Of a stretch of DNA of 64,000 nucleotides, positions 5,890 to 58,949 are shown one piece after another. Location: positions 5,736-69,735 of the forward strand of contig CALRIY020000004.1 in NCBI GenBank assembly GCA_943364975.1, read 5' to 3'. The notes under the pieces were generated by a model. The model saw only the letters and a list, made by a program, of their open reading frames with translations. It was not told the origin of the DNA and made no database searches. The DNA comes from Synechococcus sp. UW140 (GTDB lineage Bacteria > Bacteroidota > Ignavibacteria > UBA10030 > UBA8401). Made by a program: the position numbers and the translations under genes. Position 1 is the first letter of the stretch; each line of letters begins with the position of its first letter.

Positions 5890-5893
5890 CCCG

Positions 5894-13607: not shown

Positions 13608-14055
13608 GGCGGATTCCTTTTTAAAATGGACGATGCGTTCTGCAGAGAACTTCTCCGCAGAATGAACGGAAAGGGATCACGTCAGAAGTGAACGCGGGCG
13701 AAGGTGGTCTTGGGTTGAGGCATAGGAACCTCTCAATGGAGAATTGTTTTTTCGCCGCAGATGGCACAGTTAATGTCGATCAAAGAACATCGATCTGTGT
13801 CACCCAGGGTAATGATAGAACAAAAATACTTGTGAAAAGTCCGGTAAGCAATATGGAACTTGAGGGAAGAAATATTATATCGAAGGAAAGCAGAGTTCAT
13901 TGTCTGTAATTCCTTCAACTTCTCAAGCGAAACTTGGGAAGGTGAAGGTGAATACCGATCTGTGACGATCCGCCCGATTCCTGCCTGCCCTCCTGCAGTC
14001 TGCGACTCGAAGTGCAGGTAGAGCTTCAGTCAAACGTGTGCTATTGAGGGAATAC

Positions 14056-17716: not shown

Positions 17717-17822
17717 TTAATTCCTGCATGATGAGTTATGAATTTTCAGGATCATTACCGTGCGTATCACATCAACCCTGCTTTTCTGTTTTGGTTTTTA
17801 TTTCCGCCGGCAGTGTAAATAA

Positions 17823-17863
17823 TTCTCCATTCTCCATTCTTCATTCTCCATTCTTCATTCTCA
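17823..17863. repeat. heptamer tandem repeat (TTCTYCA)x6
   Basis: ttctcca ttctcca ttcttca ttctcca ttcttca ttctca; the last unit contains the stop codon of the SDR gene. The reverse complement is (A)TGRAGA, the same word as at 58469-58510. Confidence 0.85.
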
Positions 17864-18637
17864 ACTGCTCTTCCGGTGCACCATCGTCGGCGCGGATTGA
17901 TCGGTGGTCATCAGGACGATATTGTTCACGTTCACGTGAGCCGGACGGGTTGCCGCCCATACGATCGACTCGGCGATATCATCCGGCGTGAGGGGGGAGA
18001 GTCCTTCGTACACTTTCTTCGCCCGTTCGCTGTCTCCGCGGAAGCGGACAATACTGAACTCCGTCTCCACCAGTCCGGGATCGATGGAGGTGACGCGGAT
18101 CGGGGTCCCGAGCAGATCCATTTTCAATCCCTGGGAAAGTGCATTCACCGCAAATTTTGTTGCTGCGTACACATTTCCCTTCGGATAGGTCCAGTGACCG
18201 GCAACGGAGCCGATATTGATCACGTGTCCTGCGTTCCGCTCGATCATTCCCGGAAGAACAGCGCGGGTGATATAAAGGAGTCCCTTCACATTGGTATCGA
18301 TCATCTCATCCCAATCCTCGATCTTCGCTTCCTGGAGATTATCCAAACCGCGGGACAATCCGGCGTTGTTTACCAGGACGGAGATCGATCTCCATTCTTC
18401 GGGAAGTTCATTCAGTCTTTTTTCGACCGCTTTCTGATCACGGACATCCAAAACGAATGAATGGGTCTTCACCCCGTACGTAGACCCCAGTTCATTTGCA
18501 ATCGCGGTTATTTTTTCTTTGCGGCGCGCGCAGATCAGAATGTTCGCTCCGAGCTTTGCGAATTGTACGGCGGCAGCTTTGCCGATGCCTGATGATGCGC
18601 CGGTGATGAAGACTATTTTATTCTTTAGGTCGGTCAT
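17861..18637 (-). CDS. short-chain dehydrogenase/reductase (YdfG-like NADP-dependent)
   Basis: Cofactor motif ITGASSGIGKAAA, NNAG, catalytic YAATKFAV; 258 aa. Confidence 0.85.
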   Translation of the reverse strand: MTDLKNKIVFITGASSGIGKAAAVQFAKLGANILICARRKEKITAIANELGSTYGVKTHSFVLDVRDQKAVEKRLNELPEEWRSISVLVNNAGLSRGLDNLQEAKIEDWDEMIDTNVKGLLYITRAVLPGMIERNAGHVINIGSVAGHWTYPKGNVYAATKFAVNALSQGLKMDLLGTPIRVTSIDPGLVETEFSIVRFRGDSERAKKVYEGLSPLTPDDIAESIVWAATRPAHVNVNNIVLMTTDQSAPTMVHRKSS

Positions 18638-20964: not shown

Positions 20965-22635
20965 TCACTCTTGTGCGGGTAATACCGGCTGAACAAATAT
21001 AACTTTTTCCTTATCAAGCGCAACAGTGCCGGCCGGAGCCCCCTTCGGTTTATGGATGAACTTCCGTTCCGTCATCGCTACCGGCACATGCTTGGCATTC
21101 TTCATTTTGCTGTAATAGGCAGCAATGGAAGCAGCCTGTTCGACAGCTTTTTTCGTCGGCGTGCCGTGTCCGGTTCCGATCTTCAGCACGACATGCGAAC
21201 CGCTGGAACCGCGGGCATGGAACCAGAGATCATTCGGTTTTGCGAAGCGAAATGTCAGTAAGTCGTTGTTAACGCTGTTCTTACCGGCGTAGACCGTAAA
21301 ACCGCCCTCCACAGTGAAGATCTTGAACGGCGGCAGTTCTTCCTGTTCTTTTTCCGTCATATATCCGAGTTCTTTGACCATACCGCCGAATGAGTGTATG
21401 AAATTTTTCAGAGAGATACTGTCCGTAATATGGTTAGACTTTTCTAATAAATCATTGACCGATGTCAATCTTTCTTTCAGTTCCGTCAGACGCTGGCGTG
21501 ATTCTTCTTTGGCCGTCTTCGAGCGTTTTGCCTTTTCGAAATACCGTTCGGCGTTCTTCTGGGGAGTGAGCGTTTTTTCAAGCGGGACCGTGACCTGCTC
21601 ACCGTCCGAAAAAGGATTGGTCACCGTTGCAGAGGCATCTCCTTTCGAGAGCTCCGGAAGATGGGCCATGATCAGATTTCCGTACAGCTCGTACTGTTCC
21701 GCGCGGGCGGATTCCGCCAGTTCAGTCTCGACGCTGACGATCGTCCTCGCCGCTTTTTCCGATTCCTTCTTCAGCCACGCGGTGATCTCCTTCTTCTTCT
21801 GCTGGAAATTCTGTGACGAACGTTCGAAGCTGATGAATTTCTGGATCCCCGCGAACAGATCTGGGATCGATTCCATACGCAAGCGGGACAGATGCCGGAG
21901 CGGGATCAGTGAAAGACAAAAGGGATTCCGGTCGTCGAAATAGATGAGCGGTTCCGCTGCTTTGATCGCGAGTACTTCGCGGATGACCTCTTCGGCGGAC
22001 GCATAGACCGCCCGGGTCCGTTCGGACGATTCGGTCGCACGCTCTTTGATCTGGGATCGGAAGATCACTTCCTCCGCAAGGATGGAACCGAGTTTAGGGA
22101 GAGCACTCTTCAGGGAGCGGACCGGATCGCCGTTGCTCTGAAATTTTTCCGAGAACTGATCTAATGAGGGGAGACACTGTTCGATCCCGATTGTGCGGGG
22201 CTCTATCTGCAGCGGACAAACCTGCTGAAACTCCTCTTTCTTGTTCAGGAATGCATCCGTGATGACCCCATCGCCGCCGCAGAGAACAACATTGGCTTTG
22301 GATGCAAACATCTCGATACAGATCCATTGATCGCTCGATGTCTTGAGATAAATGACCCTGTCCGTTGCGCTGAGATAGACCGAATCGATATGTTTGTCGA
22401 TCAACTCGGGGAAAAGATCCACGGAGTTCGTCCTCGAACGGTTGTCACCGTTCTTTGCGAAGATGAAATTATCTCTGGCGTTGCAGGAGATCGTGATGGT
22501 GTGCGGTTCAGGTGAATACAGCAGAAGAGAGAGTGTATTCTTTTCCTGGGAATAGACTTGTGCTATTACAGTCGATTTGAAACGGTCATTCAGCAGCGCA
22601 GCAATATGATACAGCGTAAAATAATTTGATGTCAT
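20965..22635 (-). CDS. rqcH: NFACT-family RNA-binding protein (RqcH/FbpA-like ribosome quality control homolog)
   Basis: C-terminal NFACT-R/DUF814 motif FRFAKPNDLWFHARGSSGSHVVLK, a central coiled coil, and length typical of bacterial RqcH. Start uncertain: 22635 (MTSNYFTL) or 22695. Confidence 0.7.
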   Translation of the reverse strand: MTSNYFTLYHIAALLNDRFKSTVIAQVYSQEKNTLSLLLYSPEPHTITISCNARDNFIFAKNGDNRSRTNSVDLFPELIDKHIDSVYLSATDRVIYLKTSSDQWICIEMFASKANVVLCGGDGVITDAFLNKKEEFQQVCPLQIEPRTIGIEQCLPSLDQFSEKFQSNGDPVRSLKSALPKLGSILAEEVIFRSQIKERATESSERTRAVYASAEEVIREVLAIKAAEPLIYFDDRNPFCLSLIPLRHLSRLRMESIPDLFAGIQKFISFERSSQNFQQKKKEITAWLKKESEKAARTIVSVETELAESARAEQYELYGNLIMAHLPELSKGDASATVTNPFSDGEQVTVPLEKTLTPQKNAERYFEKAKRSKTAKEESRQRLTELKERLTSVNDLLEKSNHITDSISLKNFIHSFGGMVKELGYMTEKEQEELPPFKIFTVEGGFTVYAGKNSVNNDLLTFRFAKPNDLWFHARGSSGSHVVLKIGTGHGTPTKKAVEQAASIAAYYSKMKNAKHVPVAMTERKFIHKPKGAPAGTVALDKEKVIFVQPVLPAQE

Positions 22636-22808
22636 TCTATAAGATACGAAATTTAGGAGTTGCTTTACGAACAGAACCATATAATACTCTGCCACAAAAG
22701 CACAAAAACACTAAGTTTTCACAAAATTTAGTGTTCCTATTATTTACAGAATTTGTGTTTTAGTGTTTTTGTGGCTAAAAGAAATTTTTTTCACCGGAAG
22801 ATTTTCTA

Positions 22809-22837
22809 TTGACAAAAGGATAAAAAAAATATATCTT
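22809..22837 (+). promoter_or_regulatory. sigma-70-like promoter of the tetR gene
   Basis: TTGACA (22809-22814), 17-nt spacer, TATCTT (22832-22837), about 40 nt upstream of the ATG. Confidence 0.4.
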
Positions 22838-22846
22838 TGTTCAGAT

Positions 22847-22865
22847 ACTAAACAACGTTCATAAA
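22847..22865. promoter_or_regulatory. candidate TetR operator O1 (ACTAAACAnnGTTCAT)
   Basis: actaaacaacgttcataaa, with imperfect dyad TAAAC-N3-GTTCA. It is nearly identical to the site at 23507-23525. Confidence 0.45.
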
Positions 22866-22875
22866 TCAGAGAATC

Positions 22876-23487
22876 ATGGGCTCAGCCGAACGAAAAGAGA
22901 GAGAAAAGCACGAAATGCGGGAGTTGATCCTTGCCGCAGCCCGTAAGCTCTTTTTAAAAGAGGGATTCGAGCATGTGACCATCCGCCGCATTGCGGAGGA
23001 GATCGAGTATAGTCCGGCAACAGTCTATCTCTATTTCACGGATAAGGATGCCATCCTCTGTGCACTGCAGGAGGTCGGCTTCAGGGAATTATTCAAGCGT
23101 CAGCAGATGCTCACATCCATCAAACATCCGGCCGAGAAGCTGCGCGCATGCGGCAGGATCTATATGGATTTTGCTATGGAAAATCAGGAACTCTATGACC
23201 TGATGTTCATCATGCGTGCACCGATGAAAGCGTTTGAGTCGCCGTCCGATTGGAATATGGGGAAGGATACATACGAAGTCCTTCAGACGATCATCAAGGA
23301 TTGTATCGATCAGGGATACTTAAAAGCGGAAAGTCCTCAGATCGCATGTTTCTCGTTATGGGCGCTGATGCACGGCGTCGTTTCCATTTTTATCCGGGAC
23401 CGAGCACCAATGATTCCGAAAGAACAACAAGAACATGTCATCAACGGGATCCTCGATTTTACTATGAGTGAGCTTTTGGATAAGTAG
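22876..23487 (+). CDS. TetR/AcrR family transcriptional regulator
   Basis: N-terminal HTH LILAAARKLFLKEGFEHVTIRRIAEEIEYSPATVYLYF; 203 aa. Confidence 0.85.
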   Translation: MGSAERKEREKHEMRELILAAARKLFLKEGFEHVTIRRIAEEIEYSPATVYLYFTDKDAILCALQEVGFRELFKRQQMLTSIKHPAEKLRACGRIYMDFAMENQELYDLMFIMRAPMKAFESPSDWNMGKDTYEVLQTIIKDCIDQGYLKAESPQIACFSLWALMHGVVSIFIRDRAPMIPKEQQEHVINGILDFTMSELLDK

Positions 23488-23506
23488 AGCATTTTTTTTG
23501 CCCGCT

Positions 23507-23525
23507 CACTAAACACTGTTCATTA
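23507..23525. promoter_or_regulatory. candidate TetR operator O2 upstream of the TonB-dependent receptor
   Basis: cactaaacactgttcatta repeats the O1 core ACTAAACAnnGTTCAT, about 63 nt before the receptor ATG. Confidence 0.45.
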
Positions 23526-23587
23526 TAAATACGATTATCATTTCAACACTGCATTCATTAACCATTCAAACAACTTAAAGGAGAATC

Positions 23588-26017
23588 ATGAAAAAAAGAA
23601 CATCACACCGCCACACGATCCTGACGGCAGTCTTCTTTTTTATTTTCGCAACACTCAGTACTGCAGCGCGTGTGAGTGATCCGTCCATCGGAGCAGAAAC
23701 AACAACAAAAGGAAATATTTCCGGGGTGGTGATCGACAAAGAAAGCAAGCAGCCGATCCCGAATGTGAGTGTACAGATCATCGGCACACAGACAGGTACA
23801 TCGACGGACATCGACGGTACATTCATCATCAAAAATGTGGAAGAGGATATTTATAAACTTCAGTACAGCTCCATCGGCTATATGAGGCATATCGAAACGA
23901 ATGTCCGGGTCGTACGGAACAAAACAACGATGGTGAAAGAGATCGAACTGAACGAACAGATCGTAAGCGGTGAAACGGTTGAAGTGACCGCCTCAGTCTT
24001 TTCGTCGGACAATGTTTCGCCGGTAACGAACTATCACTATTCAATGGAGGAGATACGGCGTTCACCCGGTGCAACCGGTGATATTTTCCGAGCGATCGAA
24101 ACTCTTCCGGGGGTGGCGAGCAGCGGCGGTGAGTTCTCCGCATTCTCCGTCCGCGGGGGGAGTCCAAGGGATAATATCGTTGTCGTTGATAATATTCCGT
24201 TCGACAAGGTATCGCACTTCGACGGCGGCACGGAGGAACAGGAGGCGCAGGGGGGACGGTTCAGCATCTTCACTCCCGGTGTGATCGACGAGGCGAATTT
24301 TCAGGCGGGAGGATTCTCGGCACGCTACGGCGGAAAGAATGCATCCTTCGTCGATTTGAAGATCAAAGAGGGGAACAGAGAATCTGCCACGATGAACGGA
24401 ACGTACGATGTGCTGGGATGGGAGTTCAATTACGACGGTCCGTCGTATCTTCAGGGCAAGACATCACTTCTGTTCTCCGCACGTCACCAGAATTTCAGGA
24501 CCATACTTGATATGACGGGACAGAAGGATCTCGGATATCCGAGCTTCACCGATGTTCTGCTGAAGACCACGACCGAGCTCGATTCCCGGAATAAGATCTC
24601 CATTCTCGGCATCTATTCGCCGGAATTCTTCGAGCGGACGATCGATAATGTGTACGAGATCGATGATCAGAAGTACGATAACCAGCTTGCCAGATCATCC
24701 GATACAAAATCTCTCTTGGGACTGAATTGGCGAACACTCACAGGGACATCAAGCGTGCTGGAGAACGCCGTGTATTACCGCGGCAATACGGCGGATTTCC
24801 GCCGGAGCAATTCATATGTCTATCCCTACAACGGCATTGTTCCGAAAAAGGAGGATGCTCACGTCCGGGATGATTATTATAAATACACCAGTGACGAGGA
24901 TGAGATCGGTATCCGCTCTCAATTCACCTATACGCCGACATCCGTCTCATCGATCGCGGTGGGAATTCAGGCAAATAACACAGCATTTTCATACAGTGCA
25001 AAACAAATAATGGCAGAAACACTTTTTGTCTATGACCGGAATGACTTCCGTCCGAACCCGGCGGAGAAGTTCATCATTCTCGATCCTGCCTTCATCAACA
25101 GTACACTCAGCACATCCAAATCGACCGGCGCCGCGTTCGCGGAGTACACCTATTCCCCGAATGAAGTGCTGAAGTTCATCCCAAGCGTGCGGTATGAATA
25201 CAATGGATTCAATGAAAAGAGCTATATATCTCCCAGGTTCAGCGCGAGTTACTTCATCAGTGACAAAACAAAGCTCAGTGCCGCAACCGGAGTCTATTAT
25301 CAGCCGGTGGAACTTCGGACGATCTCGCTGGATGTGAGGAATGCAAAGCTCAAGAACGAACGGTCCATTCATTATATCGTCGGTGTCACAACATATCTGA
25401 CGGATGATGTGAAATTCACGGCGGAGTTCTATCACAAGGACCTGAACGATCTGATCGTTAAAACGGACCGGACGACAGATCTGAGGAAGAATTCCGGCAC
25501 CGGTCAGGCGCGCGGCATCGATTTCGGTCTGGTGAAGAAGTTCACGGACAAGTGGTACGGGCAGATGAATTATTCATATTCCTCCAGCCGCCGGGACAAT
25601 CACGACGGACTGCCGGAATACAATTCCGATTTCGATCAGCCGCATATCTTCAACGTCCTCTTCGGGTATGAGTTGAACAGTGAATGGTCCTTCTCCACCA
25701 AATGGAAATTCGCGACCGGCCGTCCGAAAGATTCGTATGTGCTCAATGCGAATGTGTTCAACGATCCGGGGATGATGCGCTATTCCAAAGAGATCACCGG
25801 CAACAACACGGAACGCCTTCCGGATTTCCATACATGGAACGTCCGCGCGGATTACCGCAAGCAGCTCGGCGATGTTGCCATCGTGGCGTTCCTCGACATT
25901 CTGAATCTCTATAACAGACTGAATGTGAATGAGGAGCGGTTCATCGAAACGACCGGCACGATCGATCCGAAAGGATTCCAGATTCTGCCGTCATTCGGGT
26001 TGAAGTTGGAGTTTTAA
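23588..26017 (+). CDS. TonB-dependent receptor with N-terminal carboxypeptidase-regulatory-like domain
   Basis: Signal peptide; CarbopepD_reg-like GNISGVVIDKESKQPIPNVSVQI...DGTFII; plug region with IEEIRRSPGATGDIFRAIETLPGV; terminal aromatic ...GLKLEF. Confidence 0.85.
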   Translation: MKKRTSHRHTILTAVFFFIFATLSTAARVSDPSIGAETTTKGNISGVVIDKESKQPIPNVSVQIIGTQTGTSTDIDGTFIIKNVEEDIYKLQYSSIGYMRHIETNVRVVRNKTTMVKEIELNEQIVSGETVEVTASVFSSDNVSPVTNYHYSMEEIRRSPGATGDIFRAIETLPGVASSGGEFSAFSVRGGSPRDNIVVVDNIPFDKVSHFDGGTEEQEAQGGRFSIFTPGVIDEANFQAGGFSARYGGKNASFVDLKIKEGNRESATMNGTYDVLGWEFNYDGPSYLQGKTSLLFSARHQNFRTILDMTGQKDLGYPSFTDVLLKTTTELDSRNKISILGIYSPEFFERTIDNVYEIDDQKYDNQLARSSDTKSLLGLNWRTLTGTSSVLENAVYYRGNTADFRRSNSYVYPYNGIVPKKEDAHVRDDYYKYTSDEDEIGIRSQFTYTPTSVSSIAVGIQANNTAFSYSAKQIMAETLFVYDRNDFRPNPAEKFIILDPAFINSTLSTSKSTGAAFAEYTYSPNEVLKFIPSVRYEYNGFNEKSYISPRFSASYFISDKTKLSAATGVYYQPVELRTISLDVRNAKLKNERSIHYIVGVTTYLTDDVKFTAEFYHKDLNDLIVKTDRTTDLRKNSGTGQARGIDFGLVKKFTDKWYGQMNYSYSSSRRDNHDGLPEYNSDFDQPHIFNVLFGYELNSEWSFSTKWKFATGRPKDSYVLNANVFNDPGMMRYSKEITGNNTERLPDFHTWNVRADYRKQLGDVAIVAFLDILNLYNRLNVNEERFIETTGTIDPKGFQILPSFGLKLEF

Positions 26018-35180: not shown

Positions 35181-36701
35181 ATGTTATTGCACCATCGGTT
35201 CATCGACACGGCTAAGAAGATGGGGGATAAGATGTATATCGTCGACCGGACAACGAACCGGCGAGTCCCGTATTCGAAAGCCTTGATCGCAACGTTGATC
35301 CTCTCCGAGAAGATGGAGAAGTATGACAAAGGCTTCATCGGCATCATGGTCCCCACCTCGGCCGGCTGCATCCTCGCATCGCTCGGTGCGCTGATGAGCG
35401 GACGCGTACCGGTGATGATCAACTATTCCACCATGGCGGCGCAGAACTGCGAGTTCGCCCAGAAGAAACTCGCCTTTAAGACGATCATCACCTCCAAAGC
35501 GCTGGTGGAGAAGATCCAATGTCCCATTGTGCCGGGCATGGTCTTCCTCGAGGATATCATGGCGAGCATCTCGGTGCTGGATAAACTCCACGCTGCGCTC
35601 CGTTCCAAACTTCCGGCTGCGATGCTGAAGAAGACCGTCGCGCAAGGGACCGACGATGACAATCTGGTGATCCTCTTTACCAGCGGCAGCGAAAAGGAAC
35701 CGAAGGCAGTGCAGCTCTCCCACAAGAATATTGCTGCCAATCTGGAAAGTCTTGAAAAGGTGCTGGAGTTCAGCGGGAAGGACGTGATGCTCGGCAATCT
35801 TCCGATGTTCCATTCGTTCGGACAGACGGCCCATCTCTGGCTCCCCATCTGGTGCGGAATGACGGTGGTGACCTACGCCAATCCTCTCGATTTCAAGGGT
35901 GTGAACGATGTTGTCCGAGAAGAGAAAGTGACCATCTTTGCCGGCACGCCGAGTTTCTTCTTCGGTTATCTCAGCAAATCCAATCCGGGTGATTATGAAT
36001 CATGCCGCATCATCCTGTCCGGTGCGGATAAGTGTCCCGACGCGCTGCGCAAAGCCTTCATCGAAAAGCACAACAAGGTCATCCTCGAAGCATACGGCTG
36101 CACGGAGACCGCTCCCGGTCTTGCATTGAACACGCCGACGCATAACCGTCCGGGCAGTGTGGGACGAATGCTTCCCGGTGTCTCTCTCCGGATCGAGAAC
36201 CATGAGACCGGCGAGCTGTGCGGGGTCCGCGAGACAGGGAAGATCCTGGTAAAGGGGGACAATGTGATGAAAGGATATTTCGATGATTTCGAGAACACCT
36301 CCCTGGCATTCCGTCACGGCTGGTACGATACCGGCGATATGGGCTGGCAGGATGAGGACGGATATGTCTGGCATGTGGGCCGGCTGAAACGGTTCGTGAA
36401 GATCGGCGGAGAGATGATCTCCCTGATCAAAGTGGAGGATGTGCTGGAAAAACTTCTTCCTCCCGAGACGAAGGTCTGCGTGGTCGAGATCCCGGACCAG
36501 ACAAAAGGGGCGAAGATCGTTGCGGCCATCACTCACCCAATCGACGAGAAGGAAACGCTGAAGAAGATGTCCGAACATCTTCCGAATATCGCTCTGCCGA
36601 AGCAGTTCGTCGTCATTCCCGATCTGCCTCAGATGGGGAGCGGGAAGATCGACTTCCGTTCGACCACGAATATGGTGAGGGATATCGTCTCGAAATCGTA
36701 A
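35181..36701 (+). CDS. AMP-forming acyl-CoA/acyl-ACP synthetase (adenylate-forming enzyme)
   Basis: AMP-binding core motifs LFTSGSEKEPKAV, YGCTETAP, GWYDTGDMG, GRLKRFVKIGGEMIS, and the C-terminal catalytic Lys in SGKIDF. AAGGAG RBS. Confidence 0.8.
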   Translation: MLLHHRFIDTAKKMGDKMYIVDRTTNRRVPYSKALIATLILSEKMEKYDKGFIGIMVPTSAGCILASLGALMSGRVPVMINYSTMAAQNCEFAQKKLAFKTIITSKALVEKIQCPIVPGMVFLEDIMASISVLDKLHAALRSKLPAAMLKKTVAQGTDDDNLVILFTSGSEKEPKAVQLSHKNIAANLESLEKVLEFSGKDVMLGNLPMFHSFGQTAHLWLPIWCGMTVVTYANPLDFKGVNDVVREEKVTIFAGTPSFFFGYLSKSNPGDYESCRIILSGADKCPDALRKAFIEKHNKVILEAYGCTETAPGLALNTPTHNRPGSVGRMLPGVSLRIENHETGELCGVRETGKILVKGDNVMKGYFDDFENTSLAFRHGWYDTGDMGWQDEDGYVWHVGRLKRFVKIGGEMISLIKVEDVLEKLLPPETKVCVVEIPDQTKGAKIVAAITHPIDEKETLKKMSEHLPNIALPKQFVVIPDLPQMGSGKIDFRSTTNMVRDIVSKS

Positions 36702-36725
36702 GAATTTCCTGAACGTTCAGAGAAT

Positions 36726-36755
36726 AAAAAACCGCCTGGGACCAGGCGGTTTTTT
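36726..36755. terminator. bidirectional intrinsic terminator
   Basis: AAAAAACCGCCTGG-ga-CCAGGCGGTTTTTT between convergent genes; it marks the left edge of the low-GC island. Confidence 0.85.
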
Positions 36756-36771
36756 ATTCATTACGGAAATG

Positions 36772-39700
36772 CTATTTCATTAAGGCCATTTTGATCGTCT
36801 TGGTGAAGTTCCCTGCCGTCATTCGCACAACATACAATCCGCTTGCAAAATGTGTGGCATTCCAGGCCACTGAATAACTTCCCGCGGACCGCTCTTCATT
36901 CACCAATGTTGTAATTTCCCTTCCCAGCATATCAAAAACCTTAATAGAAACAAACCCGTCCATAGGTAGATCGAATGCAACTGTGGTGGACGGGTTGAAT
37001 GGGTTGGGGTAATTCTGTGAAAGATAATATTTTACAGGCACTGAATTTATATCAACTTCAATGGTTTGAGAATATTTAAATATCCCATCATGATCAATTT
37101 GTTTTAATCGATAAAATAATTTTCCACGGAGTGAATTATTATCTAAAAAATCATAGTGTGTTGGTAAAAAAGTAGTTCCACTACCCTTGATAAATCCGAT
37201 ACTACTCCACTCAGAGTTGATTATACGTTTCTCAACTTCAAAACCATAGTTATTCGTTTCAGTTTCTGTTTTCCAAAATAACGAAACAGTATTATTCATT
37301 TTAATTGCTTTGAACGAAGTCAATTCTACAGGAAGAGGTGCGTCGGTCGTGTCTATTTCTATATCATCGATCCAGACTTCTGAATCAATAATACCATTTG
37401 GCATTATTTCATATTTTAAACGCCGGATTGAGTTTTGATATGGAGCAAGATTTATCGAGTCTTGAATATAGTCAGTAGTTGTATTGTTTAAGTAGTAACC
37501 ATATTTTACTTGAATGAAATTTCCAGCCACATCAGTTAGAAATATTCCGAGACTATCTGTATTTGGAGGCGCTCCTGATGAGGGGGTATTAATTTTATAT
37601 TTGAATTTTATTTTTTTTGCATTTTGAGGAATGTAAAATCGATTGTGCACTCGATATTTGTTTGACCAGTCTAATTCAAGCTTTCCATTTGAAACACTTC
37701 CATTTCCTTCACCCCCATGAAGTGACCATCCAGCTAATGAGCCATCCCCAGAACTTAGACCAATATCTTGTAGATTGAAATTGCCATTAAAAAACAGGGC
37801 ATCAGCAAGATTATCATCAATTGACCCATTATCGTTCTGCGGATTGTTTGTATTCTGTAAATCGTCTGTGGCATAATAAGAAAACAGATTTGAAAATGTG
37901 CGGACATTAGTTCTAATTATATCGGAAGAATATCCTTTTTCATAACCACCATCTAAAATCCATTTAAAGAATCCAAGGGAGGTTCGACCATTTGAGTACC
38001 ACTCGTTATGTTGTTGTAAAGTGTCAATCGTGCCAAAATAGAAGTTGATTATCCTGCTATGTGGTGATGGATTACATAAATTAAAATCCATGAATTCATT
38101 AAGATTTAAATCTAACCCATAAGGATAATCTAATAGATGCTCCAATTGTCTCCCTCTAGGATTCGCATTAATCAAGAATTCTTCACATTGATCAGCCGCC
38201 CTCTGTTGATAATAATTATCAGCATAAAGCACATTACTCCAAATTTGAACTGCAGGGTCATGAAAGTATTCATCAAGTTGAATGCCAGGGTCACCAAAAT
38301 CATGATTGTCCAAAAAAGTTGAATAATTTACAGTAACATTATATATACCAAGTCTCTGAGCTAGTTCACTTCCAACGGATGCACCACGACTGTGGCCAAT
38401 AATGTGGATAGGTAAACTAAAAGAAGGCTCAATCAAATTTATAAAAATGGGATCAATAACATTGTCACCCATAGGTGCAATAATGGCACAGAACAAAGCT
38501 TCTGCAGCGGCCTCTGCTTGTCCTGCTTGTCCATCATTCGATGCCTTTGCCCAATTGTGAACAATTACCTTTTCACCATACGTGTTATTTGAAATGGCAC
38601 TTTGATATTCAAGAGCGCCTGATGCTGGATTGTATAACCAAACCGAACCGCCACCGTAAACATTTAGTATCGAACCGATAAAATTGAAACCTGAATTCCA
38701 ATAATCAGTTACTGGATTATAAGTATCACTATTTCCTTCAACAACAAAGCCGTGAATGAGAATTGTGACCCCTGTTTTAACAGTACTAAAACTTTTTACG
38801 TAAGTGTCTCCCTCAATACCATCCAAATTACCGTCTAATTTGTTTCCTGCCAAATCTTTTACGTTTCCAAGAACTTTGAAGGTATATGTTTTGAAGTTTC
38901 GTAAACCTTCCGATGGTGTAAAAACATATGTGTTTTGTCCTAAATCAGTAAATGATGAAAAAGCCAACTCAATGCCATCGTAATTAATACTTACATTATC
39001 AGCCAGTGTTGACGAATTGATTGGCTCGTTAAAGGTGACAATAAATTGAGTGTTTAATTTCAATTTCAAATTACCATTCATTTGAAGTGTATCAGTTGGT
39101 TTGACGCTGACTACGTATGGAGGAGTACCATCCAAAGTTGTAACGGACATTGTGTTTGAATAATTGCTGAACGCGCTGGTTTTATATGCCATTACACGAT
39201 AATAGTATGTAGTGTTTTGGGAAAGTCCCGATACATCATCGTATGAAATATTTTCTACATCTTTGTAATTATACGAAGAAAGAATATTTTCAAAACTTTC
39301 ATCTGTGGCGACATCTAATCGGTAACCCGTTGCTCCATTAACAGTATTCCAATGAGCACGAAAACCGGTTGACGAAATATTGGATGCTGAAGTCGCCACA
39401 GGTGTTAACGGACCCATTCTTAATGAAAACTTATAATATCGATCCCCCGTTTCATTTCCGGCAATCGAGTAAACAATGATATATGTTCCGTTCGTTACCG
39501 TAATCTTTTCCAGTTCATTTTGCCCCGGGGAAATGTTCGTATGCTGATGTATCAATTCTAATGAACCACACTGTCCTGATAAAACGGACAGATTTATCGT
39601 GGTATTCGGCTGAAATGCATTATCTGTATTAATATTCAATGTCCCATTTTCTAACACAGTTAATGAATTGTAATCATCAAGATCGATAAGCTTTCTTAAG

Positions 39701-40902
39701 TAGGTTGTATATACAATTCCAACATCAACTGGTGTTGCACTGGCACACGAGTTATTATCATCGAAGGATGTCTCTGTTGTTATCGTGTTTGAATTACTAC
39801 TGGTTCCCCCACTATTGCTAGCTCTGATTCGGTAATAATATAATGTCATGGGAGCTAAACCCGTGATATCCTCGCTCAAAGTATTGCCTACGTCCTTATT
39901 GGAATACCCCGAAACGAATGATGAAAAATTGTCTTCAGTTGAAACATCAATAAAATATTTAAATGCACCAGTCGAAGAGTTCCAATTGGCGGTAATAGAT
40001 GTAGAAAGAATATTGGTTGCACTTATTGCCGCTGGATTTGATGGAATCGTATAAACATTCATCGTATTTGAATTACTGCTTTCTCCTGCATCATTGTAAG
40101 AACGAACCCGATAAAAATATTCAATACCAGCATTAAGACCGGGAACAGGGTATGAAGTGACATTACCAACATTAAGTCCATTGAATCCTGAAAGAAACGT
40201 TGAAAAATCAGATGCAGATGAAACGTCCAGTTTATAACCTGATGCGTTTGTTGCAGTATTCCAATTAGCGACAAAAGAGGATTGAGTTATACTGCTTGCG
40301 GAAGTTGTCACTGGAATACCCGGGGGACCTTGATTAACTCTGACTAAATAACGATAGGCATACTTACCGGTGCAATCGGTATAAGCATCAGAAGCAGGAT
40401 TATAGACCCATCCTTGAGTCCAACTCTGCTGATTGGAGGCTGCTGTTCGAACAAATATTTCATAGGTGGTGTATGCCTTTGGCTTAATGTTCAATTGGAT
40501 CAAAATATTTTCGCCATTTAACCAATTATTATTGTCCTGAAATTCAGCCATAACATAATCATAGTAACCATCCGGACCACCGCCAGATTGTGATCCAAAG
40601 TATTCGGTGTAACTATGATCTGAATCCATGCTATTTACAGATATATAATCTTTGTCACTTTCCGAAGTAAACTGCTTAATGCTAATTGACAAATTGTTGT
40701 ATAATGCAGGAGACATATTCCCATCATTTCGAACCGCAACCCTAAAAACAAAAACTTCCCCAGCACCAACATTTAACGTCACATCTTTAATGGTCCCCGG
40801 GGTTACATTGTTTCCGTCAACTCGGACATGTACAAATTGAGGGTTTGGTTGACCATTTAATATTCCAAGAAAAAAGAGGACCGGAATGAATACTTTTTGC
40901 AT
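36772..40902 (-). CDS. 1376-aa secreted multidomain protein: 3 FN3-like repeats, Ig-like domain, alpha/beta-hydrolase (lipase-like) domain, T9SS C-terminal sorting domain
   Basis: Signal peptide. Three repeats of the pattern SASxIxxxxFxAxWNxxxxAxGYxLDV...YYYRV. SbsA-Ig-like VVSVKPTD...FIVTFNEPI. Hydrolase motifs ILIHGF and nucleophile elbow IIGHSRGAS. C-terminal LSQNYPNPFNPSTTVAF...GLYVVRM. Confidence 0.8.
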   Translation of the reverse strand: MQKVFIPVLFFLGILNGQPNPQFVHVRVDGNNVTPGTIKDVTLNVGAGEVFVFRVAVRNDGNMSPALYNNLSISIKQFTSESDKDYISVNSMDSDHSYTEYFGSQSGGGPDGYYDYVMAEFQDNNNWLNGENILIQLNIKPKAYTTYEIFVRTAASNQQSWTQGWVYNPASDAYTDCTGKYAYRYLVRVNQGPPGIPVTTSASSITQSSFVANWNTATNASGYKLDVSSASDFSTFLSGFNGLNVGNVTSYPVPGLNAGIEYFYRVRSYNDAGESSNSNTMNVYTIPSNPAAISATNILSTSITANWNSSTGAFKYFIDVSTEDNFSSFVSGYSNKDVGNTLSEDITGLAPMTLYYYRIRASNSGGTSSNSNTITTETSFDDNNSCASATPVDVGIVYTTYLRKLIDLDDYNSLTVLENGTLNINTDNAFQPNTTINLSVLSGQCGSLELIHQHTNISPGQNELEKITVTNGTYIIVYSIAGNETGDRYYKFSLRMGPLTPVATSASNISSTGFRAHWNTVNGATGYRLDVATDESFENILSSYNYKDVENISYDDVSGLSQNTTYYYRVMAYKTSAFSNYSNTMSVTTLDGTPPYVVSVKPTDTLQMNGNLKLKLNTQFIVTFNEPINSSTLADNVSINYDGIELAFSSFTDLGQNTYVFTPSEGLRNFKTYTFKVLGNVKDLAGNKLDGNLDGIEGDTYVKSFSTVKTGVTILIHGFVVEGNSDTYNPVTDYWNSGFNFIGSILNVYGGGSVWLYNPASGALEYQSAISNNTYGEKVIVHNWAKASNDGQAGQAEAAAEALFCAIIAPMGDNVIDPIFINLIEPSFSLPIHIIGHSRGASVGSELAQRLGIYNVTVNYSTFLDNHDFGDPGIQLDEYFHDPAVQIWSNVLYADNYYQQRAADQCEEFLINANPRGRQLEHLLDYPYGLDLNLNEFMDFNLCNPSPHSRIINFYFGTIDTLQQHNEWYSNGRTSLGFFKWILDGGYEKGYSSDIIRTNVRTFSNLFSYYATDDLQNTNNPQNDNGSIDDNLADALFFNGNFNLQDIGLSSGDGSLAGWSLHGGEGNGSVSNGKLELDWSNKYRVHNRFYIPQNAKKIKFKYKINTPSSGAPPNTDSLGIFLTDVAGNFIQVKYGYYLNNTTTDYIQDSINLAPYQNSIRRLKYEIMPNGIIDSEVWIDDIEIDTTDAPLPVELTSFKAIKMNNTVSLFWKTETETNNYGFEVEKRIINSEWSSIGFIKGSGTTFLPTHYDFLDNNSLRGKLFYRLKQIDHDGIFKYSQTIEVDINSVPVKYYLSQNYPNPFNPSTTVAFDLPMDGFVSIKVFDMLGREITTLVNEERSAGSYSVAWNATHFASGLYVVRMTAGNFTKTIKMALMK

Positions 40903-41006
40903 AATTATCCCACCATTGAGTAATGAGTGTTCCCGTAAATAATTTTTACGTCACACTGGGATATCAACGCAATCAGTAGTTCTTGCCGAAAACAGGAGAG
41001 GAAATT

Positions 41007-42407
41007 TCAGGGAAGTACTATCGAGACAGGAGTGCGATGCCACCGTTTCCCATCCCAATATTCAACGTGATTTTTAAGGTTTGCAAGGTATGCTGAATCG
41101 ATTGTGCTGTTAAGGTAACCCATTTTCTTTAGCGAATCATGAATTTGGTAGGTTCCATCCGAAGATTTCACCGTAGTGACTTCCATTGACCGGTTAAATG
41201 TAAAGTCAAAGTCCCAACTAAGTGTGTCGCTACCGCTCTTGGACGTGATGATGAATCCCTTGTTGGAATCATTACCACGGTGGGCACCCGTCCTAACATT
41301 GTTGAAACATTTGTCGATATCGGACAACGGATACCGTATATAATACAGTTCTGCAGTTGAAACGGTTTTTCCACTGCCACGTGTATTTGAAGATTCCGAT
41401 TTTTCTTTAATTCTAAGAGGATCTAGGACGATCGTCACTGAATAATTCTTCGAACTGTTTTCGTCGAACTCCAGAATGTCGCACGTCCCATTAAGAATCA
41501 ATACCTGCTTTCCGCTTTCAAGGGTATCGATGAAGAGTGAACTGATATTTCCAAAATGTGAATACTCTCCTACAACATTACCCAGATTGTCTAAAAATGA
41601 AATGATAGAAGGTGAACGCCCATTTGAGGCGGATAAAGCGATGATATTTTCTTTATGATTTATGGAAAATAATTCGAGGGATCGGGGGACAAAATTCTCA
41701 TTATAGGTTCTGCCGCGGAAAATAAAATGGTTTTCAGGAATAAAACTAAATCTCTCCGTGCCATCAGAATTATATGCATACATTTTTTTTTGACTGGGAA
41801 GTCTTTTATCAGCTAAAGTGGCAGTAATAAGCAGTTCTTTTTCCCCATCCAGATCCACATCATTCAGTATGACCTTCTTTTCGTATCCCTGTTCCGGTCC
41901 AAATACTGAATTTATATTTTCAACAGCTAAGGCCCAGAGCTTTTCATTCTTTTTGTTCCGCACCTCTATCAGACTATTCTTTGTATCTATTCTTAGATAA
42001 TCAGGTGAGGCATCTATCCTTGAGGGCATCAGAGTGAATATAAACAACGTGAATAACCCCAGAACGGTGAGCGTTGATCCTCCAGCTGCAATCGGATGTT
42101 TCTTTACAGTGTAAGCAAGTTTCCCCCAAAAACTCAGCGGCAACTCTTCAAACACCTGAAGATCGTTTACAGGTAGAGAGGAGATGCGTTGTTCAACGGA
42201 GATTACCGAGTTCAGTCCTATCGAAGAATCTGACCGGACATTTTCCAATCGTCGATACAGCGCCGCGTAAAATATTCGAATTCGTTGTTCCGTTTCTCGG
42301 CATCCGTGGCACTCGGCAAGGTGTTTCTCAATCGATTTGGCAGATGCGCCGATGCTTTGTGGATCGTTGACGAATCTTTCCAAGATATGTTCTTCAATGT
42401 GTTTCAT
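41007..42407 (-). CDS. zinc-finger (HxxxCxxC) anti-sigma-factor-like membrane protein with large extracytoplasmic domain
   Basis: N-terminal HLAECHGC ZAS motif at residues ~30-37; one TM helix AAGGSTLTVLGLFTLFIFTLM; ~330-aa C-terminal domain with a DVDLDGEKELLI FG-GAP-like segment. Confidence 0.65.
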   Translation of the reverse strand: MKHIEEHILERFVNDPQSIGASAKSIEKHLAECHGCRETEQRIRIFYAALYRRLENVRSDSSIGLNSVISVEQRISSLPVNDLQVFEELPLSFWGKLAYTVKKHPIAAGGSTLTVLGLFTLFIFTLMPSRIDASPDYLRIDTKNSLIEVRNKKNEKLWALAVENINSVFGPEQGYEKKVILNDVDLDGEKELLITATLADKRLPSQKKMYAYNSDGTERFSFIPENHFIFRGRTYNENFVPRSLELFSINHKENIIALSASNGRSPSIISFLDNLGNVVGEYSHFGNISSLFIDTLESGKQVLILNGTCDILEFDENSSKNYSVTIVLDPLRIKEKSESSNTRGSGKTVSTAELYYIRYPLSDIDKCFNNVRTGAHRGNDSNKGFIITSKSGSDTLSWDFDFTFNRSMEVTTVKSSDGTYQIHDSLKKMGYLNSTIDSAYLANLKNHVEYWDGKRWHRTPVSIVLP

Positions 42408-42448
42408 TACTCAATAAATACTCTATTCAATTTTCTCAGACTGCCGAA

Positions 42449-43471
42449 TTAACTTCGGACCTTTTTTATTACTTCATCGCAGGAAAGTTTAAACAAATAC
42501 TCAAGTCGTGATTTATGTCCACTGCGATACGCTTCTTCCGTCAATTCAGGCTCCATATGTTTCATCAAATGAAATAGTGACTGTCCGTTTGGAGAACCAT
42601 CAATCATCATTTGACAAATCTTTTGGTCGATAACTTCAAAATAGTGTTGATAGGTGTTCTCAAAGGTCTTTCCCTTTTTGACATACTTTGTATGGAATTG
42701 GTGCTTCACTCCGACAACAGTATTGTGAATCAATTCAATGAGTTCAGTGCTGTTTTGGGTTGATTCTTCAACAGAAGATAGCTTGACGATCGATTTTCTC
42801 GAATAAATCGATCGAATCACTAGCGCAACCTGCATAATGTTAACGGATCTATTGTGTTCGTTTTGATTTCGGAGTTCGAGTGCCAAAGATCCGATGATCT
42901 CCATAATATTCTCATTGCCACTCATTATCGTGATGAGAAGCGACTCCAACGATTGTTCGTCAAATGGTGGCAGGTTTTCTTTCAGATCACATTGTGTGGG
43001 CGCGAGATATTGTTCGCCGAATCGCTCCAGATAGATGAAATTACCGAGAGAGTGGACCGCCAATTTGATATTTCGCAATATGCGAGAAAGCATTGGATCG
43101 CTTTCACGATATAGTCGAGCAATGCCGTCATTTACTTTGGTGAAGACCAATCGTCGAAAATGCGAAAGGATATCTGCATCCGAAAGATCACTAAGCCGAT
43201 ATGCAGAAAAATAGGCGGTCAATGCAATCAATTTTTTCTCGTCATCCCTCCTAAAGAGATCGGCAATACAGTCATATGCCGCATCATTACTTGAAAGATA
43301 AAAATAATCGCGATTGATAGAGCCAGTTGCAGCTTTGATGTCAAATATGGTTGCGGCAATTGAGTGAGCGAGCAACACAACGTCGTTCAATTGTTGCGGT
43401 GAATAATCCTGACGCAATAATGCTTCAAGATTTTCCCGTAATCGTTCGATGAGGTAATGATGGTCTCGCAT
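42449..43471 (-). CDS. hypothetical 340-aa helical protein occupying the sigma-factor position of the island operon
   Basis: Clean 340-aa ORF, 41 nt upstream of the anti-sigma-like gene. Only a weak resemblance to sigma-70 region 2 (DAAYDCIADLFRR ... HFRRLVFTKVNDGIARLYRE). No family recognised. Confidence 0.6.
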   Translation of the reverse strand: MRDHHYLIERLRENLEALLRQDYSPQQLNDVVLLAHSIAATIFDIKAATGSINRDYFYLSSNDAAYDCIADLFRRDDEKKLIALTAYFSAYRLSDLSDADILSHFRRLVFTKVNDGIARLYRESDPMLSRILRNIKLAVHSLGNFIYLERFGEQYLAPTQCDLKENLPPFDEQSLESLLITIMSGNENIMEIIGSLALELRNQNEHNRSVNIMQVALVIRSIYSRKSIVKLSSVEESTQNSTELIELIHNTVVGVKHQFHTKYVKKGKTFENTYQHYFEVIDQKICQMMIDGSPNGQSLFHLMKHMEPELTEEAYRSGHKSRLEYLFKLSCDEVIKKVRS

Positions 43472-43602
43472 AGATTTCGACTAAAAATCTTTAGAAATCA
43501 GCAAAATATCAATACGGTAGTTCTACAAAGACCGAAAAATATATTCTTTGACTTCCTTTTGCAACAATTACTATCTTTGATTATTAAAAAACAAGGACTA
43601 TC

Positions 43603-57907: not shown

Positions 57908-58447
57908 CTATTTTTTAAAATTTTTCCACATCATCGATTCCACCGGTTTGATCGTCCTGCCGTTATACTTTGCATTCTTCTTTTTATTATAGAGCACTTC
58001 CACTTCGCCGTCCACAGTGAAATAGATCAACTGTCCGATCGGCATCCCTGCATACACTTTTACCGGCTGGCGGACGGAGATCTCGAGGGTCCATGTATTG
58101 CAGAATCCGATATCTCCTTTTCCCGCCGTGGCGTGGATATCGATGCCGAGTCTGCCGATGGAGCTTTTTCCTTCCAGGAAGGGGACATGCGCATGCGACT
58201 CGGTGTATTCTTCGGTGACGCCGAGATATAGTTTGCTTGGAACGAGGATCAATCCATCAGAAGGGATCTCGAAATGTCGAACCTTGTTGTGGACCTTCGC
58301 ATCGAGGATCTCATCCTCGTACATCGCAAGGTATTTTCCAAGATGCACATCATAGCTGTTCGAGCCGAGAAATTTCCGGTCGAACGGAGTGATCACAATG
58401 GTCCCTTTATGCATTTCATCGAGGATCTTTTTGTCGGAGAGGATCAT
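57908..58447 (-). CDS. dcd: dCTP deaminase
   Basis: MILSDKKILDEM...ITPFD...GSNSYDVHLG and the catalytic region EGKSSIGRLGI; 179 aa. Confidence 0.85.
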   Translation of the reverse strand: MILSDKKILDEMHKGTIVITPFDRKFLGSNSYDVHLGKYLAMYEDEILDAKVHNKVRHFEIPSDGLILVPSKLYLGVTEEYTESHAHVPFLEGKSSIGRLGIDIHATAGKGDIGFCNTWTLEISVRQPVKVYAGMPIGQLIYFTVDGEVEVLYNKKKNAKYNGRTIKPVESMMWKNFKK

Positions 58448-58468
58448 AAGAGCAATGAATAATTAATA

Positions 58469-58510
58469 ATGGAGAATGTAGAATGTAGAATGAAGAATGT
58501 AAATGTGGAG
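58469..58510. repeat. heptamer tandem repeat (ATGNAGA)x6
   Basis: atggaga atgtaga atgtaga atgaaga atgtaaa tgtggag, located 22-63 nt upstream of the dcd start. Confidence 0.8.
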
Positions 58511-58735
58511 GAAATATACGAAAAACGGGATGAGAATAAATTGAAAAACAAAAACATCAATATCCTCAATGAATATCATATTTATTTGTATCCCCGTGGG
58601 CATTTCCTACACGGTTCACGGTCTTTTAAGCATGACCGAAGCGGAATAAATAATCCTCCACAAAAAAACTGCAGATACATTTCCTATAGACAAAAACAAA
58701 TCGGACAACGTGCTCTGTTGTGTGATTTAGATTCC

Positions 58736-58764
58736 TTGACTACCCGTGAAAAAAGGGATACTTT
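58736..58764 (+). promoter_or_regulatory. sigma-70-like promoter of T9SS paralog 1
   Basis: TTGACT (58736-58741), 17-nt spacer, TACTTT (58759-58764). The same architecture and flanks (cTTGACTAC...AAAAAAGGnATA) occur at 60734-60762. Confidence 0.45.
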
Positions 58765-58776
58765 TTAACAGATAAA

Positions 58777-58855
58777 ATGAGCAGTCGAATTATCCTGACT
58801 CTCTCTAACATCCCTCCCGGGACCTCCCCATCCCCCGAGTCTTGTTAGCTCTCAG
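58777..58855 (+). promoter_or_regulatory. conserved leader element, copy A (candidate 5' UTR RNA or operator)
   Basis: Blocks ATGAGCAGTC (58777-86), GACTCTCTCTAACATCCC (58797-814) and TGTTAGCTCTCAG (58843-55) are identical to copy B. The sequence between the blocks is unrelated. Confidence 0.55.
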
Positions 58856-58949
58856 AAACGTGTTCGCCTTATCGACACCTCTGACGCTGATAAGCAATCA
58901 TGTGTCGAAGCAGCGGATCCTCATCACACATATTCCCCCAGGAGGGACA

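Follow-up and report, generated by a model that had tools for sequence, protein, structure and literature searches.

We analysed a window of 64,000 nucleotides (64 kb) from contig CALRIY020000004.1 of assembly GCA_943364975.1, deposited as Synechococcus sp. UW140 and placed among the Ignavibacteria, and found in it a low-GC island (36757-43602) with three co-directional open reading frames (ORFs) on the minus strand, here called genes A (43471-42449), B (42407-41007) and C (40902-36772). A and B are a conserved two-gene unit; only this pair is conserved, and the cargo gene next to it differs between genomes. B resembles, by its sequence, a class I zinc anti-sigma factor that spans the membrane and has a propeller as its sensor, A is not detectable as a relative of sigma-70 by any of the tests that were run, and C is a multidomain type IX secretion system (T9SS) cargo. 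The best overall explanation is that the island is an imported cassette at a hypervariable slot of the chromosome, and that A and B form a transmembrane signalling module regulating the adjacent cargo gene. We hold this reading tentatively, with a probability of about 45%. The elements of the cassette and its borders are the following.

42449-43471, minus strand: gene A, 340 amino acids, cytoplasmic, almost all-helical, of an unannotated family (from homology, conservation and an AlphaFold2 (AF2) model)
41007-42407, minus strand: gene B, 466 amino acids, single-pass membrane protein with an anti-sigma-like domain, a transmembrane (TM) helix, an ectodomain and a DUF2510-like C-terminus
42228-42407, minus strand: cytoplasmic anti-sigma-like domain of B, residues 1-60, with putative zinc ligands H3 and H29-x3-C33-x2-C36
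42036-42092, minus strand: predicted TM helix of B, residues 106-124, IAAGGSTLTVLGLFTLFIF, with its Kyte-Doolittle peak of 1.91 at residue 106
41010-42023, minus strand: ectodomain of B, residues 129-466, of FG-GAP/beta-propeller type by family models and PDB search
36772-40902, minus strand: gene C, 1376 amino acids, secreted multidomain T9SS cargo (Pfam fn3, Big_5, Por_Secre_tail)
37678-38790, minus strand: core of C, residues 705-1075, putative alpha/beta serine hydrolase by motifs and a 24-sequence alignment
36787-37011, minus strand: T9SS type A C-terminal sorting domain (CTD) of C, residues 1298-1372 (TIGR04183, PF18962, NYPNPFNP)
43472-43602, no strand: intergenic region, 131 nt, AT-rich (GC 0.29-0.33), from which A and the S46 peptidase gene diverge
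36722-36759, no strand: bidirectional intrinsic terminator, a perfect 18-nt inverted repeat with A and T runs on its flanks

The genes are separated by 41 nt (A-B) and 104 nt (B-C), and neither gap contains a terminator-like fold (z -0.06 and -0.41, respectively); the only strong terminator of the cassette lies after C. This gene layout mimics an operon of a sigma factor, its anti-sigma factor and a target gene. An earlier sequence-only reading of the same DNA had given the three ORFs with exact coordinates, sizes and gaps and had likened them to such an operon. The likeness of the layout was supported, but no sigma factor could be detected in A with Pfam, hhalign or Foldseek.

The conserved A-B gene pair

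Relatives of A were studied in 70 loci of species-representative genomes, with metagenome-assembled genomes (MAGs) labelled Ignavibacteria, Ignavibacteriales, Bacteroidota, Kryptoniota and Melioribacter. In 61/61 assessable loci a B homologue was found directly downstream of A on the same strand, with its start 0-1411 nt away. The nine loci without B end at most 770 nt after A and were hence not assessable. The neighbourhoods around the A-B pairs were otherwise unrelated. The pairs fall into two paralogous clades, in which A is 31-55% and 21-27% identical to the A of the window. Both clades were present in single MAGs (L010/L058, L012/L066, L014/L068), with a separate B for each A, which is what one would expect if the signalling pairs are insulated. 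Based on its position and orientation, the short gaps that lack terminator-like folds and the strict linkage, we infer that A is the cognate cytoplasmic partner of B. The sequence-only reading had named separate occurrence of the two proteins as evidence against its view, and what was found is their joint occurrence in every assessable locus. The search for the same trio in other genomes that it had proposed gave A and B together; the third gene is not conserved, and only its class, the presence of a T9SS CTD, recurs, in 17 of 43 loci.

These data also bear on the reading that the three genes are neighbours without any functional relation and that their likeness to an operon is a coincidence. 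The cargo gene is not conserved, as this reading would have it. For A-B it is contradicted by their invariable adjacency amid otherwise unrelated surroundings, and the T9SS CTD genes are distributed very unevenly around the pair, with 31 CTD hits downstream of B and 2 upstream of A. We consider mere coincidence hardly credible.

The N-terminus of B contains HLAECHGC at residues 29-36, with the zinc-ligand motif H29-x3-C33-x2-C36 at nt 42300-42323. The HxxxCxxC pattern was kept in 61/61 B homologues, and H29, C33 and C36 were invariant. The fourth ligand of such domains, which is a His or Cys of helix 1 some 25 residues further upstream, has its counterpart in H3, which is 26 residues from H29; the equivalent spacing in ChrR is H6 to H31. 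H3 is conserved in at least 90% of the sequences and H7 is also common, both within M-x-H-I-[DE]-E-H, and the consensus of the family N-terminus reads M-x-H-I-[DE]-E-H-T-L-E-L-Y-x-L ... I-E-x-H-L-x-x-C-x-G-C-R. The Pfam model zf-HC2 (PF13490) scored 14.5 bits (E=0.04) against B of the window, which is below its cutoff of 22.2 bits, and matched 20/41 members of the B family at E<=0.1 (best E=2.7e-5). When the PDB was searched with a family profile of the first 100 residues, the best matches were RsiW (E=0.0032) and RslA of M. tuberculosis (E=0.18), aligned at the motif. These results support a class I zinc anti-sigma (ZAS) type domain, i.e. ChrR/RsiW-type, at the N-terminus of B as judged from sequence and profile likeness, in agreement with what had been read from HLAECHGC.

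The single TM helix that had been proposed for B was predicted at residues 106-124, and one was found at the same place (about 103-129) in 47/47 full-length homologues. It is directly preceded by KKH, which by the positive-inside rule predicts a cytoplasmic N-terminus. In the ectodomain, FG-GAP_3 matched 27/41 family members (best 1.5e-8) and Beta-prop_CGLA 12/41, and the family profile matched the propeller of the PL11 enzyme YesW in the PDB with E=2.9e-6; B of the window itself had no FG-GAP match at E<=0.1. The last 40 or so residues (window 41010-41130) contain a conserved Y-W-D-G-x-x-W, and Pfam DUF2510, a short domain of unknown function, was found in 20/41 family members. One B homologue of 813 amino acids (L050:4574-7015) was matched twice by the ectodomain of the window B (4574-5962 and 5996-6970), and its sensor domain appears to be tandemly duplicated.

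Upstream of A, the divergent intergenic region presumably holds the promoter of the cassette. Promoter-like matches on the minus strand at 43609-43580 and 43652-43623 were weak and no more frequent than in shuffled sequence. No family-wide autoregulatory motif was found upstream of A. A TATATTG-type, housekeeping-like box was present there in many loci, and not clearly in the window. In one A-B sub-clade only, with B starting VKHIDEHTLELLVLGD, a conserved element AGAGCGTCCTTT was seen 50-90 nt upstream of the A start (L036:7888, L040:7926, L041:5581, L042:1320, L046:3035), about 20-25 nt downstream of a TATAAT/ATATT-like box and between otherwise unrelated flanks. It may be an element of the 5' untranslated region or an operator, and it was absent from the island of the window. 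In L004, toxin-antitoxin-type genes (HEPN/nucleotidyltransferase, PIN and DUF433/DUF5615 among them; 12901-15244 and 17579-18174) lie directly downstream of A-B and before a small gene with a T9SS tail, and this neighbourhood looks like a variable or accessory region.

Gene A and the sigma factors

The sequence-only reading had called A an orphan of no recognisable family. Pfam indeed annotates none of its relatives, but the family is large. A homology search gave 144 homologues, nearly all of about 340 amino acids and 0 of them Pfam-annotated, and an exhaustive HMMER search gave 1339 clusters at 50% identity with E<=1e-3, of which 602 had E<=1e-30, so that the family comprises at least 1339 sequence clusters. 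Its members are almost all from Ignavibacteria/Kryptoniota and are labelled hypothetical in public records. Looking up the exact A gene of the window on public contigs gave no record, although its protein is present in the searched collection. No fused domains were found in the longer members, and the family profile had zero matches in the PDB by sequence. A has no TM segment and a pI of 6.2. Conservation is concentrated in an acidic helix at 61-73 (D63, D67 and F73 invariant), in a helix at 98-124, and in a helix at 126-142 followed by a beta-hairpin at 145-158 (R133 and N134 invariant; R150-F151-G152). The AF2 model was confident, with a predicted local distance difference test score (pLDDT) of 87.7 for the full length, and a pLDDT of 86.6 and a predicted template modelling score (pTM) of 0.75 for residues 1-165. 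The structure prediction that had been proposed for A alone thus succeeded as a model, but gave no significant neighbour in Foldseek.

A was compared with sigma factors at several levels. The Pfam models Sigma70_r2, r3 and r4 matched 0/48 members of the A family at E<=1, and NCBIfam gave no sigma match for A. Among the family models that the sequence-only reading had suggested, Por_Secre_tail matched C and zf-HC2 was below threshold in the window B, but the Sigma70 models found nothing in the A family. With hhalign, A (whole, N-half and C-half) was aligned with profiles of extracytoplasmic function (ECF) sigma factors, built from those in the same fetched loci, of E. coli RpoS/FliA/RpoH/RpoD, and of both combined. 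The probability was at most 0.4%, whereas the positive control of ECF against group 1-3 sigma factors reached 97.5% (E=6e-12) with the same thin profiles.

Foldseek gave no significant neighbour for the full-length model (best E 0.69) or for the N-domain model, for which the best match had E 2.0, sigma factors were absent and template modelling scores (TM scores) were at most 0.25. The top non-significant matches of the full-length model were enriched in sigma factors, over about 340 aligned columns, in both the PDB and BFVD. Ranks 3, 4, 6, 7, 24 and 50 in the PDB were sigmaS or sigmaA, and ranks 1, 4, 5 and 45 in BFVD were phage sigma factors, FliA-like proteins and gp55. None of these was significant, and the sigma matches had E 0.3-5 and TM scores of 0.2-0.35. 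The enrichment in these model comparisons could be a bias of long helical proteins or a real resemblance in the C-terminal half. As none of the sigma-70 tests of A detected a sigma factor, the sigma slot of the operon-like layout is an analogy of position only. Two assignments to known classes had been considered for A. An ECF/sigma-70 protein, with residues 61-125 likened to regions 2.1-2.4, was rejected at the sequence and profile level, and Foldseek at the domain level did not support it. An OmpR/PhoB-type winged helix, which would be formed by helix 126-142 and hairpin 145-158, had only weak winged-helix matches in Foldseek (E 4.6-7.2).

A could nevertheless be an extremely divergent, sigma-like specificity factor of RNA polymerase, that is, a new sigma class, with B as its bona fide anti-sigma factor and the cassette as a true operon of sigma factor, anti-sigma factor and target. 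A has the position and orientation of an ECF sigma factor upstream of a class I ZAS-type domain in 61/61 loci, and two independent libraries returned the sigma-enriched, non-significant matches described above. By eye, the invariant acidic helix with D63 and D67 recalls sigma region 2.1/2.2. There is also a precedent in the specificity subunit gp226 of the non-virion RNA polymerase of phage AR9, which has no detectable sequence similarity to sigma factors and yet contains sigma2- and sigma4-like elements (PMC9209446). gp226 illustrates that a functional sigma-like factor can escape detection by sigma-70 sequence. Unlike A it is viral and is not under anti-sigma control, and its sigma-like elements are known from a structure solved by experiment, while none are demonstrable for A. 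The cryptic sigma factor is further opposed by the absence of all three Sigma70 domains from 48/48 members, by the hhalign result in view of its positive control, by the confident N-domain model that matches no sigma factor and by the poor E-values and TM scores of every sigma match. We regard it as unlikely.

Another explanation is that B is the anti-sigma factor of an ECF sigma encoded elsewhere, and that A is not the output that B sequesters but an accessory protein of the pathway, for example a stabiliser, an adaptor or an antagonist of the anti-anti-sigma-like kind. A class I anti-sigma domain adjoins only about 6% of the ECFs of Bacteroidetes, and unlinked pairs are thought to be common (PMC7406223), which makes this explanation plausible. 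Ordinary ECF sigma factors do occur in the Ignavibacteria loci, with six found within the 70 fetched loci, and A is without any DNA-binding signature. Against it, none of the six ECF genes (0/6) is adjacent to and co-directional with A-B, nor was such a gene found in any locus. The strict, oriented adjacency of A and B in two paralogous clades is the pattern of cognate partners, and each paralogous B would require its own unlinked sigma factor. We consider this arrangement improbable.

The low-GC cassette and its cargo

The island is a strong compositional outlier within the 64-kb window. In 1-kb windows the GC content fell from 0.50-0.53 to 0.34-0.42 over 37001-43000 and then rose again up to 0.56. 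GC and GC at third codon positions (GC3) were 0.407 and 0.411 for A, 0.415 and 0.411 for B, and 0.370 and 0.295 for C, which has the lowest GC in the island. The remaining genes of the window (n=33) had a GC of 0.527±0.020 (minimum 0.478) and a GC3 of 0.643±0.037. A, B and C are thus 10-16 points lower in GC and 23-35 points lower in GC3, which corresponds to 5.5-7.7 and 6-9 standard deviations (SD), respectively. The composition-normalised tetranucleotide signature of the island correlated with that of the rest of the window at 0.681, as compared to 0.958±0.012 for 87 other 6.8-kb windows (z≈-23). Mild GC dips (0.45) were also seen at 22001-24000 and 58001-59000. These were far weaker, and no gene there was below 0.478.

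The GC change-points, at about 36748 and 43743, coincide with gene borders. The left one is marked by the terminator at 36722-36759, which serves both the cassette on the minus strand and, on the plus strand, the AMP-binding gene that converges with it, and folds with a free energy of -30.3 and -29.6 kcal/mol on the two strands (z -7.7 and -6.8). The right one is close to the divergent intergenic region. The sequence-only reading had described the sharp drop in GC, with hand counts of 14/60 at 37021-37080 and 36/60 at 35401-35460 that proved exact, and the terminator on both strands; GC, GC3 and tetranucleotides all give extreme values for the island. Its statement that signs of mobility are lacking was likewise borne out. 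No tRNA was found in the 64-kb window, no direct repeats were seen to bracket the island, and A, B and C contain no domain of integrase, transposase or recombinase type in Pfam or NCBIfam. Of the classical features of a mobile island, only the atypical composition with sharp borders is present, and integrase, tRNA and repeats are absent. Searches of the island for defence systems (PADLOC), phage proteins (PHROGs) and Rfam families gave zero matches.

C is composed of a signal peptide, two fn3 domains, a PPC-like region, an fn3/Big_5 part, the putative serine-hydrolase core, which is unannotated, a lectin-like region and the type A CTD. Its N-terminus, MQKVFIPVLFFLGILNG, is by inspection a typical signal peptide. 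The CTD was matched by TIGR04183 with 43.1 bits (E=3e-11, cutoff 23) and by PF18962 with 39.6 bits (cutoff 27), and NYPNPFNP stands at residue 1297. With both a sorting domain and a Sec signal peptide, C qualifies as a T9SS type A cargo. The core motifs are an oxyanion HG at residues 717-718 and a GHSRG nucleophile elbow at residues 836-840 (nt 38383-38397). GHSRG and HG, as well as further D and H columns, were invariant in the core alignment (n=24). Residues 705-1290, the central core, are shared with a small family of about 20 homologues, all without Pfam annotation, and UniRef names one distant match an alpha/beta hydrolase. There was no Pfam match of the core at E<=10 and no PDB sequence match at E<=1. 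A serine hydrolase is a reasonable assignment from the motifs. The view that C is a T9SS cargo with a hydrolase-like core was thus borne out, the hydrolase at motif level. Full-length homologues of C were not found, as every match covers the fn3 part alone, and the donor could not be identified by this route. Two of the best homologues of the core (window 37033-38790; P0390 and P0397) come from MAGs labelled as archaea (Hodarchaeales, Pacearchaeota), which could reflect inter-domain transfer or mis-binned contigs.

Cargo genes are common after the A-B pair. The next same-strand ORF after B bears a T9SS CTD in 17/43 loci with enough sequence, and the cargoes are diverse, including BNR/sortilin, FG-GAP and Vgb-lyase-type propellers, laminin-G proteins and unknowns. 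Four more genes of the window, all on the plus strand, have a T9SS type A sorting domain at their end (7154-7426, 8498-8845, 60183-60482 and 62742-63125). Three of the four contain N[YF]PNPFNP, so the tail of C does recur in other genes of the window, as had been noticed.

The window was found to be collinear with the MAG contigs L006 and L007 in the order AmtB, BBP2, AMP-binding, [cargo, B, A], S46 peptidase, 360-aa gene (aa, amino acids) and glycosyltransferase GT2. The amino-acid identities (%) are given below in the order window-L006 / window-L007 / L006-L007.

AmtB: 90 / 89 / 98
AMP-binding: 82 / 82 / 97
S46: 70 / 71 / 86
360-aa gene: 70 / 69 / 90
BBP2: 68 / 71 / 87
GT2: 60 / 64 / 78
A: 54 / 56 / 77
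B: 39 / 45 / 48

Between L006 and L007 (L006:9266-10687 and L007:9103-10521), B is 69% identical in the cytoplasmic domain and 40% in the ectodomain, a pattern that hints at recombination with breakpoints within B or at a sensor under strong diversifying selection. The cargoes of L006 and L007 differ from each other. With flanks at 78-98%, A at 77%, the B ectodomain at 40% and different cargoes, the slot turns over between these relatives; it is a fixed slot in which ectodomain and cargo change fastest. In L001, the same contig as L006, a GT87-like glycosyltransferase gene (8576-9964, 462 amino acids) lies between the S46 peptidase gene and A, which is further evidence of a plastic slot.

Since the same slot is occupied by an A-B cassette in two relatives, the low GC most likely reflects recombinational replacement and not a mobile element. 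The whole A-B-cargo cassette would have been replaced by recombination through the conserved flanks, from an unsampled donor that would be a relative of lower GC and would also use T9SS. Such a replacement would explain why the borders are sharp and why integrase, tRNA and repeats are missing. The compositional island is real but ordinary in kind, most probably a cassette replacement at a variable locus. The mode of acquisition, which the sequence-only reading had left open, is less open with the shared slot of L006 and L007, which points to allelic or cassette replacement.

The low GC could instead be a product of vertical inheritance and locus-specific evolution, for example if selection is diversifying, or is relaxed because the genes are rarely expressed. 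A-B is syntenic with L006 and L007, the divergence of A relative to the flanks is about twofold both between window and L006 and between L006 and L007, and B is AT-shifted in L006 and L007 too. In 40 other loci the GC of the A-B pair minus that of its surroundings was also slightly negative, -0.017±0.021. The minimum there was -0.079, and the offset of about -0.10 in the window is some 4 SD from the family mean. The drop in GC and GC3, the breakpoints at gene borders and the tetranucleotide signature far exceed what is usual in the family. A is not AT-shifted in L006 and L007, where its GC of 0.47 and 0.46 is inside the range of the flanks, and C has no orthologue in these syntenic relatives. 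Vertical descent is, in our judgement, a poor explanation of the island.

Proposed mechanism and related systems

The mechanism that we propose is most likely to be sought on the model of the ECF sigma/anti-sigma pairs. The anti-sigma-type domain of B would hold A inactive at the membrane, and a signal at the propeller ectodomain would release it. The freed A would then alter transcription of the cassette, the variable T9SS cargo gene included. The ectodomain and the cargo vary together between close relatives, so the signal may relate to the cargo or its substrate; the ectodomain would accordingly sense something linked to its cognate T9SS cargo or to what that cargo acts on. In this scheme the binding of A to B, the action of A on transcription and the cargo as a target would all follow the analogy.

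Several points weigh against this reading. Binding of A to B is proposed by analogy, contact of A with DNA or RNA polymerase is hypothetical, and A has neither a recognised DNA-binding or sigma domain in family models and profiles nor a significant structural neighbour in Foldseek. Mirror-tree analysis did not discriminate between the parts of B, as the correlation with A was 0.85 for the cytoplasmic domain and 0.86 for the ectodomain. A T9SS cargo directly follows B in only about 40% of the loci, and the local abundance of T9SS cargo genes means a higher background against which the cargo enrichment has to be judged. As to import, B is somewhat AT-rich in L006 and L007 also (0.41-0.42, compared with 0.46-0.52 in the flanks), and the donor is unsampled, the closest A being only 55% identical. 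A and B outpace the flanks even when close relatives are compared, so that low identity in these two genes is no independent proof of import.

Known ECF/ZAS pairs share many features with A-B. The H...Hx3Cx2C signature of SigW-RsiW (B. subtilis), SigL-RslA (M. tuberculosis) and SigE-ChrR (R. sphaeroides) is also present in B, and the N-terminal 'L..Y.LG' helix of ChrR and RslA is found in B likewise. These pairs, like B, have a single TM helix (about 105 residues in, in B) and a sensor domain outside the cytoplasm. A short gap separates the gene from that of its partner, which is directly upstream and co-directional, and paralogous pairs occur in one genome. In contrast to these pairs, the upstream partner A has 340 amino acids, about twice the size of an ECF sigma factor, and gives no significant sigma match in the Pfam, profile-profile and Foldseek tests. 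The conservation of B is moreover limited to helices 1-3, and it has no linked ECF sigma factor.

Cellulolytic clostridia have several paralogous pairs of the regulator SigI and the membrane anti-regulator RsgI per genome, with variable ectodomains and genes for secreted multidomain enzymes. Paralogous pairs, variable ectodomains and genes for secreted multidomain proteins are found with A-B as well, the link of A-B to the cargo being positional only. Unlike A-B, RsgI uses an RsgI_N domain and not zf-HC2, SigI is a recognisable sigma-70 protein and secretion is not by T9SS. Transmembrane signalling by RsgI is among the subjects of PMC10328401.

A precedent is PorA of P. gingivalis, a protein with a T9SS CTD that provides input to PorXY-SigP signalling (PMC7712824). 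As proposed for A, B and C, a T9SS CTD protein is coupled there to a cytoplasmic transcription output via an inner-membrane sensor. PorXY-SigP differs from A-B in that it consists of a two-component system and a canonical ECF sigma factor, with neither a zf-HC2 protein nor an A homologue, and it regulates genes of the T9SS machinery and not a neighbouring cargo.

A more far-reaching possibility is that A founds a new class of transcription factors under anti-sigma control, as either a cryptic sigma-like specificity subunit of RNA polymerase that lacks a sigma-70 sequence signature or a wholly new effector captured by a class I anti-sigma domain. Such a class would be widespread in Ignavibacteria and Kryptoniota, and would link the outward-facing propeller to the expression of interchangeable T9SS cargoes at a hot spot of recombination. 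We rate this as rather doubtful. In the literature that was searched, no description was found of the A-B pair or of any class I anti-sigma domain whose partner is something other than a sigma factor, and class I anti-sigma domains have so far been defined and catalogued via their ECF sigma partners. Membrane-tethered regulator modules of the sigma/anti-sigma type are as such of a known kind. What is new is that the zinc anti-sigma-type membrane sensors of a large and strictly conserved family have an obligate neighbour that cannot be recognised as a sigma factor. Three new family definitions could be drawn up, for the families of A and B and for the hydrolase core of C, all of which are annotated as hypothetical now.

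If the proposed reading is true, anti-sigma domains would reach beyond sigma-70 proteins, or a sigma-like family invisible to sequence comparison would exist. Cassettes of a regulator and its cargo would be exchanged among lineages in one and the same slot of the chromosome. The A-B pair would then also give a first handle on the regulation of single T9SS cargoes in the Ignavibacteria, which are abundant and poorly studied members of the Fibrobacteres-Chlorobi-Bacteroidetes (FCB) group.

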